Virus record (IMG/VR): IMGVR_UViG_3300043432_000484
Coordinates: 1 to 64,000 of that record
Length of the DNA: 64,000 bases
From: a virus
Taxonomy: Duplodnaviria; Caudoviricetes
Strand: one strand, 5' to 3'
Shown here: piece after piece, positions 3,270 through 41,967 of the stretch
Numbering within the stretch: position 1 is the first letter of the stretch
Layout of the letters: the number at the start of each line of letters is the position of its first letter
Notes under the pieces: generated by a model
What the model was told of the DNA's origin: nothing
The model's input: the letters and a program-made list of their open reading frames with translations, nothing else
The model's database searches: none
Program-made: the position numbers and the translations under genes

Positions 3270-4080
3270 GGCTCCACCGGCGCATGAACTCGGGCTGTGT
3301 TGTCTCCTGCCTAAGCATGTCGATTACGCCCTGTAGTTTGGCTGGCTCCTTGATGGCCCGAATCCGAACCCTAAGGGAAATCAGCATCTTGGTGAATTTG
3401 GCCACAGCGTCTCCTGGGGCCTTATCGTAAGACTCATACATCCGCATGCGGGCGCGACCAATGGGATCCTTAGATGCGGGGACCGGCTTCTGGCGCTTCT
3501 CCTGCTTCTTCTTTTCAGCTTCTTGGCGCTTCTTGGCCGCCTCTTCTTCACGCTTACGCTGTCTCTCCTCGGCACGCTGACGGTCATCACGCTCTTGGCG
3601 TTCTTGCCTTCTACGCCTCTCTTCGTCATCTCTAGGGTCCCTCTTATAGGGGCCAGCACCTTGCCAAGGAGGAGGATTTTGAGGCCTTGGAGGAGGGGTT
3701 CTGAAGTCATACGTGGCAGGTTTAGCCTTGCCCGTCAGGATATCGTAGGCCTCATTGACCTCTCGCATCGCATCCGGAGAACCACCGCGATCCGGGTGAG
3801 CCGCCAAGGACTTCATCCGGTAGATTCTCTTCAACTCATCGGGGGTAGGATTGACCCCCGGGGGCAGGCCCAGAATCTGACGCGCTTTTTCCAGGGTAAT
3901 GGAGGAACGAGCAGCTGTCTTCCCTGTCAGTTTGTTGTACTGATCCGCTAGCTTGTTACGGGTTAGGATGTACCCGCGGCGGCGGCTAAGATCAGTGCAC
4001 CACTTGATCTGATTGTCAAGCTTCTTGATCCGATCCAGAAGATCTTTTGAAGTCTCAAGCTGCCTGGGTTCGGAGGCCAT
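3217..4080 (-). CDS. DnaJ (J-domain) protein
   Basis: ARQILGL...DELKRIYRMKSLAAHPDRGGSPDAMREVNEAYDIL with intact HPD motif, followed by a charged coiled coil. Confidence 0.85.
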   Translation of the reverse strand: MASEPRQLETSKDLLDRIKKLDNQIKWCTDLSRRRGYILTRNKLADQYNKLTGKTAARSSITLEKARQILGLPPGVNPTPDELKRIYRMKSLAAHPDRGGSPDAMREVNEAYDILTGKAKPATYDFRTPPPRPQNPPPWQGAGPYKRDPRDDEERRRRQERQERDDRQRAEERQRKREEEAAKKRQEAEKKKQEKRQKPVPASKDPIGRARMRMYESYDKAPGDAVAKFTKMLISLRVRIRAIKEPAKLQGVIDMLRQETTQPEFMRRWSPSEIHVLKQVLQSLERS

Positions 4081-9700: not shown

Positions 9701-9752
9701 GGCAGGGGATCCTTTTCCTCAGGGCTGTGACTTTATAGATAGAAATTCTGGT

Positions 9753-26846: not shown

Positions 26847-27743
26847 TCACGAGATGTTGAGTGTCACCGGTACGTCTACCGTCATATTGTCGCTGTACCC
26901 GGTAATCCTGAGAGTTTCGGTGTACACACCGACCCCCATACTGTTTGAAGGGGCTACGACTACCGTTATGGGCTGAGTGCCACCACCATTGATGGACCCA
27001 TACACGGGAGCAAAGCTCACCAGCCAAGGAACCCCTGTCAGCTTCCGGATCTGGTAGTCCAGAACTGAAGTGCTGGGACCGCTGTTAGCTAAAGAGATCT
27101 GCTGGGAAGGAATCGAAGGGAAGGGGCCGCTCAACGGGGCCGCCACATTGAACTGCAGACTGACCGGGCTAGGTGCAATCGTGGCCTTAGGTCTCACGAT
27201 CACATTGACCGGAATCGTCTGGGGGCTATTGGTAGCCTCGTTGCTCTGCACCGAAAGTGCCGCGGCATAGGGGCTGCCAACAGCCAACAAGTTGGTGCTG
27301 TCCACCGAGACGTTGAAAGTGCCCGAGGCATGGGCTACCAGGCCTCCGACATTTGCTGGCACCGGGAACACGTAAGGGGCAGAGCTGGTGACCGTCGCCG
27401 ACAGCAAGGACCCTAGGATTCCGTTGTTGGTGAGCAGGACCGGGATAGCCGAAGAGACTCCGCGTCCCTCGTCCACCACGAAGGTCATCGAGACCTCGCT
27501 CAGCAGGATTGATGGAGTGTACGCAGACTGCACCTCTGCAATCGAATCGGCCATTGCCTGGACCACTTCGCCGGGGATGGGGATCATGTCCACCATCCTC
27601 CCGTACGGGGTGATCACGTCACGGATCTGGGTGCTAACCACGGCCTGGGACACGTCCACGCGCGTAGTCCAGCGCCACGCCCCCGTGTTCATGGTGAGCT
27701 GGTACTGGTAATCCTGAAAGCGTAGTAGGGATTGGATCGCCAA
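26847..27743 (-). CDS. Ig-like (BACON-type) domain virion protein
   Basis: SPVSLQF...ISLANSG...PWLVSFAPVYGSI...GVYTETLRITG...VPVTLNIS; beta-rich tandem domains. Confidence 0.65.
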   Translation of the reverse strand: MAIQSLLRFQDYQYQLTMNTGAWRWTTRVDVSQAVVSTQIRDVITPYGRMVDMIPIPGEVVQAMADSIAEVQSAYTPSILLSEVSMTFVVDEGRGVSSAIPVLLTNNGILGSLLSATVTSSAPYVFPVPANVGGLVAHASGTFNVSVDSTNLLAVGSPYAAALSVQSNEATNSPQTIPVNVIVRPKATIAPSPVSLQFNVAAPLSGPFPSIPSQQISLANSGPSTSVLDYQIRKLTGVPWLVSFAPVYGSINGGGTQPITVVVAPSNSMGVGVYTETLRITGYSDNMTVDVPVTLNIS

Positions 27744-27902
27744 CGAGAAGTCCTCGTTACAGGCGAACTCATAAAAGAAAACCGGTACTGGGCAAAGACC
27801 CGGAAAAACTCCCTTGTGAAAACGCTCCGGGTAGAGGTCATCTAACCGGAGCGTTCTATGCCGTAAAACCGATAGTCCAACAGTTGCAAGGAGCCTTTTG
27901 CA

Positions 27903-28007
27903 GTGGAGCGTCGACCAAAACTGACTCCACCGCGGATAGGGACCTTGCGTCCTTTTTCAATTACGCTGGGCCATAAGGAAAAAACCAGCGAAAACGTAGG
28001 AGGCTAA
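27903..28007 (+). CDS. Putative leader peptide (34 aa)
   Basis: AAGGAG RBS then GTG; MERRPKLTPPRIGTLRPFSITLGHKEKTSENVGG; TAA lies 3 nt before the next ATG. Confidence 0.35.
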   Translation: MERRPKLTPPRIGTLRPFSITLGHKEKTSENVGG

Positions 28008-28010
28008 GCC

Positions 28011-28088
28011 ATGGAAATCCGTGTAGCTATAGTCCTATGGGTCACCTGGGTGTTGATACCCGTTGTTGTGATCCTTTCTTCGGTGTAA
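28011..28088 (+). CDS. Small hydrophobic single-TM peptide (25 aa), type I toxin-like
   Basis: Perfect AGGAGG RBS 7 nt upstream; MEIRVAIVLWVTWVLIPVVVILSSV; hairpin follows. Confidence 0.55.
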   Translation: MEIRVAIVLWVTWVLIPVVVILSSV

Positions 28089-28097
28089 TATAAACCG

Positions 28098-28117
28098 GCC
28101 CCAGCTTTGTCTGGGGC
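28098..28117 (-). terminator. Intrinsic terminator hairpin between convergent peptide and HNH genes
   Basis: GCCCCAG-6 nt-CTGGGGC; followed on the - strand by CGG then TTTATATT. Confidence 0.55.
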
Positions 28118-28121
28118 TTAA

Positions 28122-29222
28122 CTAAGCCCAGTTCTCTCCGCGCTTGAGCTTTCCAACCAGAGACAGGCAAATCCCAAACTGCTCGGACACCTTCCTATAA
28201 GGGGTGCGTAGAGCTAACAGGGCACGAATTTCTCGGACCTTCTCCGCGTCCAGCTTCCCCGAGCGCTCAGATGGTCGGCGTGAACGATTGTGCTCAGTTT
28301 GGGTCATCCAACGGCAGTTAGCACCCCAGCCCTTCTCTAAGCACTCAGGACAGTGCCCGCAGCTGTAGTGCCCATTGTGGTCCAAGCGGCCCATGGTGTG
28401 CTTCTTTGATGGCTTCACCCCAACATCTGCCAGGAACCCTTCAAAGTTTCCCAACCACCACCGGCACATCGTGATCCCCACGGCCCCATAGCGAGCGTAA
28501 CCATCGTGGTTGACGTTGAAACAACGCGTCTTGATCGCGCTCCAAGTCTTGTATTCGGGTGTTTGAGTTGAACCGTGCGTGGCGTTAGCGTGCGTTGAAC
28601 CAGAAGGGTACGGACGCTGATTGGCGCGTTGCTCCTTCTTGGTAGCCCAGCGACAGTTCTCTTTCGAGTATGGGCCGTCGTTGTCGATTCTATCCAGGGA
28701 GTGCTGTGAGCTTGGGCGCGGCCCCATATCGGCATAGAAGCGGGGGAAGCAGTCGATCCATTCGGGACTGATGGTGATGCCACGTCCGCCCCAGCGGGGA
28801 TAATTCGAGCTGCGTGGGTTGAGGCACCTATCCTTCATACCGATCCACGATTGATACTCTTTCGTGTGGATCATCCCATGTTTGAAGTTGGTCTTACGCG
28901 TATGATCAACCTCCCGCAACGCCGCCCCTGACGTCCCATCAGCCCTTCGATTCGCGGCCTGCTCTTCCCACGTCGCCCAGCGAACATTGCTAGGCACGTA
29001 TCCCGCGTCGTTGTCGATGCGATCCAGTGAATGACCCTCGGAAGGACGTGGACCGACATGCCTCAGGAATGCAAGAAAATCGTCCGCCCACTCAGGAGCG
29101 ATCGTGATCCCACGCCCACCATAATGCGGAAAAGCCCGATGATTTGGGTTCAAACACCGGGCCTTGATCTGCTGCCAGCAGCGATACTCAGGAGTCCTAC
29201 TTAGGTTGTGCTTGAGGTACAT
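28122..29222 (-). CDS. Homing endonuclease with three tandem HNH domains and C-terminal HTH
   Basis: T.EY..W..[IM]K.RC...YG..GIT...RP/KP...H[ST]..R.D....Y...N[VC]RW.T occurs three times; start ATG 29222, 9 nt after GGTGTA. Confidence 0.8.
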   Translation of the reverse strand: MYLKHNLSRTPEYRCWQQIKARCLNPNHRAFPHYGGRGITIAPEWADDFLAFLRHVGPRPSEGHSLDRIDNDAGYVPSNVRWATWEEQAANRRADGTSGAALREVDHTRKTNFKHGMIHTKEYQSWIGMKDRCLNPRSSNYPRWGGRGITISPEWIDCFPRFYADMGPRPSSQHSLDRIDNDGPYSKENCRWATKKEQRANQRPYPSGSTHANATHGSTQTPEYKTWSAIKTRCFNVNHDGYARYGAVGITMCRWWLGNFEGFLADVGVKPSKKHTMGRLDHNGHYSCGHCPECLEKGWGANCRWMTQTEHNRSRRPSERSGKLDAEKVREIRALLALRTPYRKVSEQFGICLSLVGKLKRGENWA

Positions 29223-29273
29223 GCGTACCACTACACCAACCATAGAAAGAGTTTGAACACATTTTGAAAGTGC

Positions 29274-29906
29274 CTAAAGGCAACGGTCTACGCCCCTATT
29301 AGCCCACTGAGGCAAACTGACCGCTCTAAGAATGTTGAATTTTTTGGAAGAAATGGAAGAAAAGATTTTCTCGTAAGGACGGTATTTCTCATCCGTTTCG
29401 GCGTGACCCTTCAGTCTCTCCACCGCCTTGAAGAACCGGTGCCGGACGCGTCCTTGGGTCAGGTTGAGCATGTTCGCTACTTCACTCTGGCAGGTTGTCT
29501 GCCACATCCCCACCAGGATGTTGATGTCGATGGCTTCGAAGATGTCCTCCAGGTCAGCGCGCAGCTCCTCTTCAGTCACAGTAGGGATTGCCAGCAAAAA
29601 CTTGATTCTCTGGATTCCCCGGTCCAACCGATAGCTGATGGCTGCCTGAGTTACGTCGAATATCTCGGCAATATCTGCTTGTCTCTTTTTGCATACATAG
29701 TACAGATAAATCAGATCGGCCTCCCTTTCCGGAATCCGATCCAGCAAAGGGGCTACTCGGGTTTCGTAATCCCCACTGCTGAAGAGAGCCGCCATTGAGT
29801 CCTCTGGCAGCTCTTCCGGGACCTCATCGTCAAGCAGTGTGTCGTGAGATGCGAAGCGATTAGCAAGCTCGGCGGGGTCTACTGGAATCACGTATCCACT
29901 GGACAT
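29274..29906 (-). CDS. Sigma70 region 4-like transcription factor with two tandem HTH domains
   Basis: LDRIPEREADLIYLYY...QADIAEIFDVTQAAISYRLDRG and QSEVANMLNLTQGRVRHRFFKAVERLK. Confidence 0.7.
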   Translation of the reverse strand: MSSGYVIPVDPAELANRFASHDTLLDDEVPEELPEDSMAALFSSGDYETRVAPLLDRIPEREADLIYLYYVCKKRQADIAEIFDVTQAAISYRLDRGIQRIKFLLAIPTVTEEELRADLEDIFEAIDINILVGMWQTTCQSEVANMLNLTQGRVRHRFFKAVERLKGHAETDEKYRPYEKIFSSISSKKFNILRAVSLPQWANRGVDRCL

Positions 29907-29949: not shown

Positions 29950-31623
29950 TCAGCCGGCCTTTGCTGGGAAGAAGGCCTGCAGGATGGACTCTGGCTTGAT
30001 CTCCAGGGACTTGATCCTGACCTCCGCCTCGGTTTGATCTGGGTTCGATCTGATCTCGGTGAACGGCACCTGCTGAAGTGCCATCAGCTGGGTGTTCAGC
30101 CGCACCTGCGCCTCCGATGCGCGCAGGTTACTGGCATGAGTCTTGCTCATACCAGCCAAATTCGATTTGAATAGAGTGTCTACATCCCCATACATCTTGA
30201 TCACCTTGCTGGCAGTCTTAAGCCCAAAATTGGGGACCCCGGGAATGTGATCAGATGTATCGCCGCTGAGAGCGCGCAACTGCACGAGGGATGCCGGAGG
30301 CACCCCGTACTCGGCTGTCACAAGGTTCGGATCGTAGAGTTTTTCCGTACCGGCACCTACAGCTGGGCACAATTGGTGGGTAGACTCGGACACGACCTGC
30401 AACAGATCTCTGTCCGAAGTCACAAGAATATTAGGAGAATATTGAAGGGGTCCCCAAGCAAGAGACGCCATCACATCGTCGGCTTCCTCGGACGGGTTCC
30501 AAGCTTGGTGGACACCGAGTTTTGGGAGCGTCTCCCTAAGCCAATCCCATCCGAATGCAGGCTCGCCCGAGCGGGACGCTCGATTACCCTTGTAGCCCTC
30601 ATACATGGCCTTTCGACGCTGAGAGCTGCCATCCCAGCACACGTAGATGGTGGCTGCCGGGAAGCGCTTCCTATAGGCCCCCAAGGCGCGCAGAAACCCG
30701 ACGACCGGGCCGGTCACACGCCCCTGGCTATCCGATAGAGAGCCAAGCCCGGGGGCCGACGCGCAGCGAATGAAGAGTTGGGTGCCGTCTACGATGAGGT
30801 TCAAATTGTCAGTTGAGGTCATCTGTTGTACATCTCTGTATATATTTAGCATTCGGCGACAAGCCGAGTTCAGAAGGGTCATCTCCTTATAGCAATGGAG
30901 CAACCCTGATATGTCAGGAATGGCAGAAGCAGACCCTGTGATCTGCCCAAGAATGGACACCGCTCGGTCCAGCATGGCCAAGGTTTTTTGCTGGCTCAGG
31001 ATGCCCTCCATCCGCTCCTTAGGCCAGAGTGCGACCTTACGGGCTCCGGAGGTCCAGGCGCTGAGCTTCTTGAAGCGCTCCCTGTGCTTAGTGTACGGGG
31101 ATTTGGATTCAAGATGAAGGAAGGCGCGGGGTAGGGTCACCAATCTATCGGTGGATCTCAACTGAATGTGGACCACCACAGAATCATGCTCTTGGATCTC
31201 ATCGGCCACTAAGGCCTTGATGTTCTTGTATGGCCCACTAGAGATCATGACGGTATCCCCGACCTCTATGCCCTGATCTACCTCAACTATGATCTGTGCA
31301 CGGAGTTTCTCGATCTGCTCCGATGTCACGGTGGCAAGCTTCCTGTCCTTCTTGGTTCCGGAGGAGACGTAGAGTGGGTTCTGAACGAACTTCGTCTCTT
31401 CCAGCCGAGAATAGTGAGAGTCAGGGTGCTTGTGCAGAATGAAGGCGTAGCCTTCTACGAGATACTGGTACTCTCGAACTGGACCTCTCTGGACCACAGA
31501 CGCCGGAATGAAAACCTCGGCGTCCCTGATATGGTGACGGATCGAGGCCCTGATGATATCAGGGTCCTCCCCATCTGCCTTAGAAGTCAGCTCCAACACT
31601 ACCCACGGAAGATCTTGAATCAT
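29950..31623 (-). CDS. NusG-like (NGN+KOW) domain fused to a 5'-3' exonuclease (PolA-N/FEN family)
   Basis: N-terminal WVVL...EVFIP...EGYAFI and KOW IEVGDTVMISSGPYKN; C-terminal LIVDG, CWDG, RKAMYEGYKGNR, EADD, TSDRDLLQ, GDTSDHIPGVPNFGLKTA. Confidence 0.85.
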   Translation of the reverse strand: MIQDLPWVVLELTSKADGEDPDIIRASIRHHIRDAEVFIPASVVQRGPVREYQYLVEGYAFILHKHPDSHYSRLEETKFVQNPLYVSSGTKKDRKLATVTSEQIEKLRAQIIVEVDQGIEVGDTVMISSGPYKNIKALVADEIQEHDSVVVHIQLRSTDRLVTLPRAFLHLESKSPYTKHRERFKKLSAWTSGARKVALWPKERMEGILSQQKTLAMLDRAVSILGQITGSASAIPDISGLLHCYKEMTLLNSACRRMLNIYRDVQQMTSTDNLNLIVDGTQLFIRCASAPGLGSLSDSQGRVTGPVVGFLRALGAYRKRFPAATIYVCWDGSSQRRKAMYEGYKGNRASRSGEPAFGWDWLRETLPKLGVHQAWNPSEEADDVMASLAWGPLQYSPNILVTSDRDLLQVVSESTHQLCPAVGAGTEKLYDPNLVTAEYGVPPASLVQLRALSGDTSDHIPGVPNFGLKTASKVIKMYGDVDTLFKSNLAGMSKTHASNLRASEAQVRLNTQLMALQQVPFTEIRSNPDQTEAEVRIKSLEIKPESILQAFFPAKAG

Positions 31624-40680: not shown

Positions 40681-41967
40681 TTACTCCGCGTTTACTTCAT
40701 CCTCGATCGAAACCACTTCCTCTGAGACCTCTTCCACGCTTCCGGCCGCCGACGAATCGTCAAGGTCGAATCCCTCAAGCAGCTCGTCATCCTCGCCGAT
40801 GTCATCTCCTGCATCCACAGCAGCAGCGTTTACCGATTGAGCCAGCTGTGTACGAAGAGTGTCATACACCTTGGGGTTCTCGATCAGGTACTTGCGCAGC
40901 TTGTCCTTACCCTGGAACCGAGCATCCTTCAGGGTGTAGTAGGCACCGTCACGGCGAATGACCTTGTGGACCACTCCGGTCTCGATGACCGAGTAGTAAT
41001 CGTCAATACCCACGCCATAACGAATGAAGATCTGAGTAGAGTGGCCCTGCTTTGCGTCCACCTTGGACTTCACGATCTTGACGTCCGTAACGTTGCCATA
41101 CGGGAACCGGCGCTTCTTTCCCGTCATCGTGTCTTTGCGCTCGATGAACTCGGACTTGATGCGTGAGGACCGCATGCGGAGGTAGGCGTAGAACTTGAGA
41201 GCCTTTCCGCCTGACGTGTTCTCATCTCCACCGTGCCCGCCACCGCTGGTCTGAATCAAAGCGCGCGTCTGGTTGATGAACACCAGGGCCGTACCAGGAT
41301 GTGAAGGATCGGATTTCTCCTTCTCCCCAGGGACCATCGGATGCTTCTGCAGCCAGGTCACAAACTTCGGCAGCACCATGGAGAACTGGCGAGCCACTGC
41401 ACCGATCTTGGCCGCATCATCGAAGCCCTTGATCAGCTCGTCCTTGGGCACCATCGCCGCTACCGAGTCGACGCCGATGATATCGAAGCCCGTTAGGATT
41501 CCGATGTACATCTGCTTGAAGCCATCCTCCATGCTGTCAGGCTGAAGAACCAGCAGCTTGTTGACGTCGTAATCCAGACCCAGAGCCTTCGCGTAGTTGT
41601 GATCCAAACTGTGCTCGAAGTCGATGAACATGGCCGCGCCCCCGGCCTTTTGAGCCTGGACCATGGCGGAGATCAACAGGGTGGTCTTGCCACTTGACTC
41701 AGGCCCGTAGAGTTCAGTGATGCGGCGGCGCGGGAAACCCGGGCAGATTGGCCCCTTCCCATCCTTAGCCGGAGTGCCACCGATCAGCATGTCCACCGGG
41801 AAAGACCCCGTGGAGATGTGACCCATTGTGGTGGCCCCTGGCTGCAAGGGCTTGGACCCGGTGGTCTTGAGGATCATCGCTCTCGCCTTAGCGAAGATCG
41901 CGTCCCGGTTTGGAGCTGCTTTTTTCTTGTCGTCAGTCTTCTTATCGTCGGCCATAACCTGCCTCAT
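40681..41967 (-). CDS. recA: RecA recombinase
   Basis: ISTGS, ELYGPESSGKTT, FIDFEH, VDSVAAM, INQ, GGKALKFYA; start may be ATG 41955. Confidence 0.95.
   Translation of the reverse strand: MRQVMADDKKTDDKKKAAPNRDAIFAKARAMILKTTGSKPLQPGATTMGHISTGSFPVDMLIGGTPAKDGKGPICPGFPRRRITELYGPESSGKTTLLISAMVQAQKAGGAAMFIDFEHSLDHNYAKALGLDYDVNKLLVLQPDSMEDGFKQMYIGILTGFDIIGVDSVAAMVPKDELIKGFDDAAKIGAVARQFSMVLPKFVTWLQKHPMVPGEKEKSDPSHPGTALVFINQTRALIQTSGGGHGGDENTSGGKALKFYAYLRMRSSRIKSEFIERKDTMTGKKRRFPYGNVTDVKIVKSKVDAKQGHSTQIFIRYGVGIDDYYSVIETGVVHKVIRRDGAYYTLKDARFQGKDKLRKYLIENPKVYDTLRTQLAQSVNAAAVDAGDDIGEDDELLEGFDLDDSSAAGSVEEVSEEVVSIEDEVNAE

Follow-up and report, generated by a model that had tools for sequence, protein, structure and literature searches.

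In the first 64 kb (hereafter the window) of the 132,754-bp IMG/VR virus record IMGVR_UViG_3300043432_000484, a gap of 378 nt (27744-28121) flanked on both sides by minus-strand genes contains, on the plus strand, an open reading frame (ORF) for a small and very hydrophobic peptide behind a structured leader and, on the minus strand, a promoter-like motif followed by a strongly folding segment. We tentatively interpret 340 bases of this gap (27784-28121) as an RNA-gated membrane-peptide cassette, that is, a type I toxin-antitoxin-like locus with a logic resembling that of hok/mok/sok, and give this interpretation rather less than an even chance. Statistical tests show more than chance in both the peptide ORF and the minus-strand fold, and the motif family is a real signal of this genome. 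The stems, Shine-Dalgarno (SD) boxes and ORFs listed for this gap by an initial annotation of the DNA are all present, to within 1-2 bases. The locus does not stand at the start of a plus-strand unit: the gap separates two genes of the minus strand, on which nearly all ORFs of at least 120 aa lie.

The peptide reading frame

The peptide ORF (28011-28088, plus strand) has 25 codons and encodes a single-pass hydrophobic peptide that begins with M-E-I-R, continues with about 19 apolar residues and ends in SSV. Its ATG is preceded at 7 nt by a full AGGAGG (SD2, 27998-28003). This is a stronger SD than that of each long minus-strand gene checked (n=50); in about half of those genes the SD is a 4- or 5-mer, and the full AGGAGG is found in 0/50. 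The combination of AGGAGG with an ATG at a workable distance is found at three sites on the plus strand of the window, and the one at 27998 is the sole intergenic one. With a grand average of hydropathy (GRAVY) of 2.12, the peptide ranks highest among the 475 window ORFs of 20-40 aa (mean -0.33, sd 0.64; runner-up 1.55). Just two ORFs of 15-60 aa in the 132-kb record combine a GRAVY of at least 1.6 with an SD, and the other is the weaker of the two (20 aa, GRAVY 1.99, a GGAG 4-mer as SD and a TTG start at 41927); no such SD-led hydrophobic mini-ORF is present in 12 related loci.

Simulation gives the same picture. When the gap was shuffled 20,000 times with its dinucleotides preserved, an ORF with a GRAVY of at least 2.0 and a length of at least 20 aa arose five times, and one that also had a 5-mer SD never arose. 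Shuffling the 72 nt after the ATG with local composition fixed yields p = 8e-4 for hydrophobicity specific to the codon phase: T occupies the second position in 15 of the 24 codons that follow the ATG, and the other two frames across the ORF are closed and not hydrophobic. By GRAVY rank and by both kinds of shuffle, the 25-aa hydrophobic ORF pointed out in the initial annotation is thus statistically non-random, and it is probably a real gene. Two other origins of the frame were considered and set aside: exon 1 of a gene split by the insertion of the neighbouring HNH gene, as the plus strand offers no continuation, and the mirror image of a minus-strand coding remnant, as no frame is open on that strand. 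The end of the peptide ORF, in its last codons, also contains GGTGTA (28082-28087, plus strand), directed into the antisense of the HNH gene; for a 6-mer, about 30 chance occurrences are expected per window.

The leader and its folds

On the plus strand the peptide gene is preceded by a structured leader of about 200 nt. Within it, an ORF of 34 codons (27903-28007) starts with GTG 9 nt downstream of an AAGGAG (SD1, 27888-27893), runs across SD2 and ends with a TAA (28005-28007) that is in frame with the peptide and 3 nt before its ATG. A GTGGAG/CTCCAC pairing spans the GTG of this leader ORF, and a weak terminator-like hairpin lies inside it (27938-27958: hairpin 27938-27954, then a T-run; GGGAC/GUCC and a U-run in the RNA; six pairs, three of them GC). 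Further downstream, the fold of 27985-28050 (-23.7 kcal/mol, z -2.6) includes a hairpin (27995-28039) that closes SD2 and the start region with peptide codons 7-9 and may represent an occluded ribosome-binding site. The leader TAA sits within this hairpin. The occlusion proposed earlier is supported to the extent that the AGGAGG of the peptide can be shut in a hairpin reached by the stop region of the leader ORF.

The minus-strand unit and its promoter-like motif

The minus strand of the gap carries a promoter-like motif, P1 (GGTTTTTTCCTTATGG, 27971-27986), which lies in the loop of a CGCTGG/CCAGCG stem, 12 nt from SD2 and on the strand opposing it. The late-type motif reported earlier (TTTTTTCCTTAT, 27973-27984, minus strand) is part of P1 and is enclosed by the same CGCTGG/CCAGCG pairing. 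P1 matches, at all 16 positions, another intergenic site (122892-122907) that precedes a 1113-aa ORF by 65 nt. In the 132-kb record, the loose motif TTTYYNYYTRT has nine minus-strand and two plus-strand occurrences, against an expectation of 1.6 ± 1.4 from second-order Markov simulations, none of which (0/200) reached nine; the pattern was chosen after instances had been seen, which tells against these counts, whereas the strand and intergenic biases are independent of that choice. Seven of the nine minus-strand occurrences fall outside ORFs (12% of the genome), 14-65 nt before gene starts. P1 and a second site in the gap, P2, both fit this GGTTTTYYYTTATG-like family of minus-strand, intergenic sites shortly upstream of gene starts. 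The family is a real strand-specific, intergenic signal, to which the late-type motif of the initial annotation belongs. P1 is a credible member of this family, whose role would be regulatory and most likely that of a promoter. Further T-rich sites of the ...TTATG type are found on the minus strand, likewise intergenic and 14-65 nt ahead of gene starts, at ~100142-100152, 82336-82346, 9735-9745, 1515-1525 and 130853-130863; a tRNA-like sequence containing GGTTCGAA immediately precedes two of them (~100.2 kb and 82.3 kb).

Downstream of P1 on the minus strand lies a putative RNA unit of about 150 nt (27817-27966), composed of a long imperfect hairpin, a small hairpin and a terminator, T2. Its predicted fold reaches -60.1 kcal/mol (z -4.65), and none of 200 shuffled sequences is as stable; the plus strand of the same segment is 7 kcal/mol worse (-53.0 kcal/mol, z -3.63). 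The same preference is seen for 27858-27966 (-36.6 kcal/mol on the minus strand vs -29.9 on the plus strand) and in the GTGGAG/CTCCAC helix, which is extended to nine pairs via G·U on the minus strand and meets an A·C mismatch on the plus strand. The structured-RNA part of the gap is therefore somewhat better explained as a minus-strand unit. The earlier claim of a structured RNA is upheld as far as folding is concerned (for the whole gap, z = -3.9 on each strand relative to shuffled sequence), while two of the stems assigned to the plus strand read better as minus-strand terminators.

One of these is T2 (27857-27819, minus strand), a hairpin of 12 bp plus 4 bp ending in UUUU (-23.5 kcal/mol, z -4.2; an A-tract on the plus strand), which is identical with the previously listed stem AACGCTCCGG (27821-27830) / CCGGAGCGTT (27846-27855). 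The pattern AACGCTCCGG-N10-20-CCGGAGCGTT is found at more than 120 scattered bacterial and 15 viral loci with unrelated loops, many of them flanked by A/T runs; the stem was rejected as a clue to homology or host, being a generic terminator-type palindrome in unrelated genomes. The other, T1 (28098-28117), is a GC-rich 7-bp hairpin that has a T-rich tail on the minus side only, begins 4 nt after the HNH stop and is shared by the HNH gene and the peptide ORF, whose 3' ends converge on it. Along the minus strand, T1 and P1 are separated by ~110 nt, and T2 and P2 by ~35 nt. With a terminator-like hairpin between P1 and P2, and with P2 as a motif of its own for the downstream genes, the fallback offered earlier, that the motif is simply an upstream promoter of the structural operon, is weakened.

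The P1-T2 unit is antisense to SD1, to the GTG and to the first ~21 codons of the leader ORF, and not to the SD of the peptide itself. Because P1 is followed by ~150 strongly folding nucleotides and a terminator-like hairpin, an antisense RNA over the leader, SD1 and GTG is plausible. The motif on which the initial annotation had based such an RNA is in place, and its transcription is predicted. The P1-T2 segment shows no complementarity elsewhere in the 132-kb record.

A proposed mechanism

We hypothesize, from the arrangement of these parts, that both strands of the cassette would be transcribed, the cassette being placed just downstream of the HNH gene and just upstream of P2 in a variable hotspot. 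The plus-strand unit would comprise the ~200-nt structured leader and the SD-led gene for the 25-residue peptide, convergent with the HNH gene and sharing T1 with it. The minus-strand unit would start at P1 and yield the ~150-nt strongly folded RNA ending at T2, which would be perfectly antisense to SD1 and the GTG start of the leader. The AGGAGG of the peptide would be shut in its local hairpin, and this hairpin would be opened by ribosomes that finish translating the leader, whose stop precedes the ATG by 3 nt. If the antisense RNA blocks the leader start and the hairpin is opened by leader ribosomes, the peptide would be synthesized only when the antisense RNA is absent. The peptide, once translated, would be expected to act on the host membrane, whether as a toxin, in exclusion or in the timing of lysis.

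Relatives of the locus and its genomic setting

The DNA of this phage occurs in freshwater and sediment metagenomes. CheckV estimates the completeness of the record at 28%, and two relatives with terminal repeats, treated as complete (G001 and G002), measure 398 and 411 kb; the record is therefore a fragment of a very large phage. An alternative genetic code was considered and dropped, as the long ORFs are open under table 11.

Upstream of the gap, the minus strand carries an HNH homing endonuclease gene (28122-29243; PHROG 3377, E 4e-99), whose TAG stop occupies 28124-28122. Before it stand a gene for a 210-aa protein (29274-29906) that matches sigma-70 region 4 in two stretches (Pfam PF04545, E 1e-15) and in which region 2 was not detected, and, further upstream, a gene for a KOW and 5'-3' exonuclease protein (29950-31623). 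The HNH gene and the gap immediately follow the sigma-region-4 gene, whose product is a candidate for recognizing motifs of the P1/P2 class. Beyond the gap, the first gene (26847-27743, minus strand; TTG start 27743-27741) encodes a conserved protein of 298 aa without known family, with relatives at 55-76% identity in ~20 viral or metagenomic loci; all homologues shown from their start codon begin with TTG. P2 (GGTTTTCTTTTAT, 27771-27783, minus strand) lies 27 nt before this TTG, with GAGGA (27751-27755) between them. It is the sole conserved DNA in the gap: every relative with coverage of the upstream region (L002-L008, L032-L041) has it almost unchanged and ~25 nt ahead of the start of the gene, even at 55% protein identity. 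The sequence GGGATCAG between P2 and the SD is kept in most relatives and not in the window.

The remainder of the gap has no counterpart. Searches with blastn, tblastn and tblastx of the gap, the peptide and the leader against ~40 related loci and the genome itself returned the P1 and P2 motifs only, and no decayed gene; for 27784-28121, no likeness in DNA, peptide or six-frame translation (noise only) was seen in the ~20 syntenic loci or in G001 and G002. A degenerate pattern of the peptide core (hydrophobic-x3, W, x, T, W, x3, P, x4) had no matches in collections of viral and prokaryotic genomes. The peptide alone being too short for a protein-level search, a 61-aa read-through of leader and peptide served purely as a query, and matched no protein among 5.8 billion clusters. 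In the phage collection the sole match was to the HNH gene, in Synechococcus phage S-CBS2. Neither Pfam nor NCBIfam, at E up to 10, gave a match for the peptide or the leader, families such as hok/sok and ldr/rdl included. Rfam at the same limit yielded only candidates that were dismissed as noise: isrK on the minus strand at 27979-28117 (21.4 bits, where the gathering score is 50), c4-a1b1 at 14 bits, and a snoRNA. The search for a known RNA family proposed earlier thus ended without a credible match. No conservation of peptide, leader or RNA was thus seen across the ~20 syntenic loci, the two ~400-kb relatives and three sequence collections, and membership in hok/sok, ldr/rdl, ibs/sib, tisB/istR, fst or another named family finds no support in Rfam, Pfam or NCBIfam.

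The relatives show how variable the site is, with gaps of 67-545 nt. Four of them (L002, L003, L005 and L006) are without the HNH gene and have only 67-106 nt between the sigma-region-4 gene and the 298-aa homologue. A full HNH gene, 63% identical, stands between these two genes in L008 (2346-3446) and L033 (13-1110); in L032 a C-terminal HNH fragment is cut by the contig start, and in L004/L039 an HNH remnant of ~60 aa is left (residues 3-40 and 343-373). In each of these cases a different DNA follows the HNH gene, over gaps of 137 nt in L033, 205 nt in L032 and 545 nt in L008. Because no relative resembles 27784-28121 and the post-HNH DNA differs each time, this segment, as judged from sequence comparison, is a lineage-specific insert in a variable, HNH-associated hotspot. 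In L008, the 411-kb relative, the gap contains an opposite-strand ORF of 144 codons (3443-3877) with lower G+C and no Pfam or PHROG family, and the hotspot thus seems to take opposite-strand cargo. In L033 (1100-1250), a short frame after the HNH gene ends in ...PPDERLDRCI*, like the C-terminus of the sigma-region-4 protein (...NRGVDRCL*); it may stem from duplication of the 3' end of the sigma gene and mark where the endonuclease inserted.

Insertion hotspots of free-standing HNH homing endonucleases between conserved genes are a feature of T4-type phages. The present site resembles them in that HNH is present, absent or decayed at one intergenic position, with variable and unrelated neighbouring DNA. 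Such hotspots account for the lineage-specific DNA, but not for an SD-led hydrophobic ORF within it.

Comparison with known type I systems

In the hok/mok/sok system, found on plasmid R1 and also in chromosomes and prophages, a small membrane peptide is, as here, encoded behind a structured leader and an upstream frame runs to the ribosome-binding site of the peptide, and the opposing RNA unit, putative in our case, would cover the start of the upstream frame rather than that of the peptide. In contrast to that system, the present locus has no similarity to it in sequence, Rfam or Pfam, its peptide has 25 rather than ~50 residues, and its leader, of doubtful coding status, ends 3 nt short of the ATG where that of hok/mok/sok overlaps it. 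Coupling of the hok/mok/sok kind may exist, in that the leader covers SD2 and the putative P1 RNA would span SD1 and the GTG; the codons of the leader are un-gene-like.

In Bacillus prophages, bsrG/SR4, txpA/RatA and yonT/SR6 are membrane-peptide genes under opposite-strand RNAs. The present locus is phage-borne like these, and HNH read-through past T1 would yield a 3'-overlapping antisense transcript; unlike them, it has no visible dedicated gene for a 3'-overlapping small RNA (sRNA) and no homology.

Fozo et al. (2010) describe type I toxins by a peptide of 16-70 aa with a 15-residue stretch in which at least 10 residues are I, V, L, F, C, M or A, by a C-terminal cluster that is polar, charged or of bulky aromatic residues, by a long intergenic setting with a local free-energy minimum, by an antisense or divergent small RNA, and by tandem copies, which are frequent and not obligatory (PMC2887945). 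The peptide here has 25 aa and, in the stretch VAIVLWVTWVLIPVV, 11 of 15 residues of the listed kind, consistent with one transmembrane helix. The long intergenic setting and the energy minimum are also found (the 378-nt gap with both its strands, and 27817-27966 on the minus strand at z -4.65), and P1 and T2 bound ~150 nt on the opposite strand as a candidate small RNA.

Toxic peptides of similar size with a single transmembrane helix are known, among them DinQ of dinQ/agrB (27 aa; PMC3567139) and the toxin of zor/orz (Z3289/Z3290; 29 aa; PMC2887945). The locus shares with ldr/rdl, zor/orz and dinQ/agrB the length of the peptide, its one transmembrane helix, the long structured intergenic setting with a local free-energy minimum, and an sRNA gene (putative here) upstream of and opposite to the 5' untranslated region of the toxin. 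It differs from them in being single-copy, in lacking a polar or aromatic C-terminal cluster and any homology, in that the promoter of the putative sRNA would be a phage-specific motif and not a host sigma-70 promoter, and in its setting, which is a huge phage of lytic type and not a chromosome.

Alternative explanations

Several observations weigh against a cassette. Neither a sigma-70 scan nor the motif classes of the phage itself reveal a plus-strand promoter for the peptide. The codon usage of the leader ORF lies at the 3rd percentile of real-gene windows, the least gene-like of the candidates, and its coding status is doubtful. That of the peptide ORF (9th percentile of real-gene windows, top 21% of antisense ORFs) does not discriminate, codon log-odds being uninformative for ORFs so short. 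The peptide ends in ...VVILSSV, with two serines and no charged or aromatic residue, and is single-copy in the 132-kb record, without the tandem copies mentioned above. No relative of peptide, leader or RNA is found in the loci and collections searched, and the U-tracts of T1 and T2 are both on the minus strand, where the hairpins can be read as ordinary punctuation.

The last point leads to a somewhat unlikely alternative, in which the gap is minus-strand punctuation only, a spacer left by HNH rearrangement that comprises T1, a redundant or decoy P1, T2 as a terminator or attenuator, and P2, with fortuitous ORFs on the plus strand. It agrees with the strand of nearly all genes and of the T-tracts of both strong hairpins, with P2 as the sole conserved element, with the lack of conservation in the rest of the gap even beside HNH (L033, L032, L008, L039), and with the absence of a promoter in the sigma-70 scan and motif search and of any support for coding from codon usage. 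Against it, chance is very unlikely to bring together a perfect SD, an ATG, an intergenic position and hydrophobicity that is both extreme and codon-phased, and relatives manage with gaps of 67-137 nt, so that 378 nt exceeds the need. The same ORF statistics also speak for a peptide gene that is real but a plain accessory gene of the moron type, whose product might be an exclusion factor or might modulate a membrane protein of the host; no antisense RNA would then be dedicated to it, and P1-T2 would be unrelated minus-strand signalling. The unrelated cargo of the hotspot in relatives, the absence of two features often seen in type I toxins, a polar C-terminal cluster and tandem copies (PMC2887945), and the fact that a P1 RNA would miss the peptide ORF and its SD are in keeping with such a gene; an opposing promoter-like motif 12 nt from SD2, followed by a highly structured unit, would be unexpected for an unregulated gene, however, and the scans found no promoter for it, and we regard this explanation as unlikely.

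Function might also reside on the minus strand alone, with P1-T2 yielding either a ~150-nt structured sRNA with a target elsewhere or a near-leaderless micro-protein of 34 aa (TTG 27960, 12 nt after P1, to TAG 27856, abutting T2). The best fold signal of the gap (z -4.65) favours the minus strand, the 34-codon ORF fits exactly between P1 and T2, and other copies of the motif stand 14 nt before start codons. A TTG without SD, however, makes a poor near-leaderless start, and the strong internal structure of this ORF is atypical for coding sequence; the segment has neither complementarity elsewhere in the 132-kb record nor an Rfam family, the ORF has no homologue, and the statistics of the peptide ORF would be left unexplained. 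Such a minus-strand function is quite improbable. The RNA-gated cassette remains the interpretation that we tentatively favour.

Implications

In its most specific form, which we consider improbable, the RNA-gated cassette would be an orphan toxin/antisense-RNA pair of a new family in a ~400-kb freshwater phage, acquired at a homing-endonuclease hotspot, whose antitoxin-like RNA would be made from the phage's own late-type promoter, so that the peptide would be made only before, or failing, late transcription. It would then be a phage-timed device for host takeover, an abortive switch or lysis timing. Membrane-peptide/antisense-RNA modules are already known from prophages, including hokW-sokW of prophage Sp5 (PMC8621323) and the Bacillus prophage pairs (PMC6562991), and an unconserved singleton in a huge phage would, unless confirmed, be a modest addition to them. 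What would set it apart is the use of a late-type motif of the phage itself to drive the opposing RNA unit. If the gap proves to be punctuation only, the P2 of the 298-aa operon has been mapped and a strand-specific motif family has been demonstrated in this genome. If the cassette is real, huge phages would join plasmids, chromosomes and temperate prophages as carriers of RNA-gated membrane-peptide modules, the tie of the antisense RNA to a phage-specific promoter class would provide a built-in timer, and homing-endonuclease hotspots would be shown to import such cassettes.

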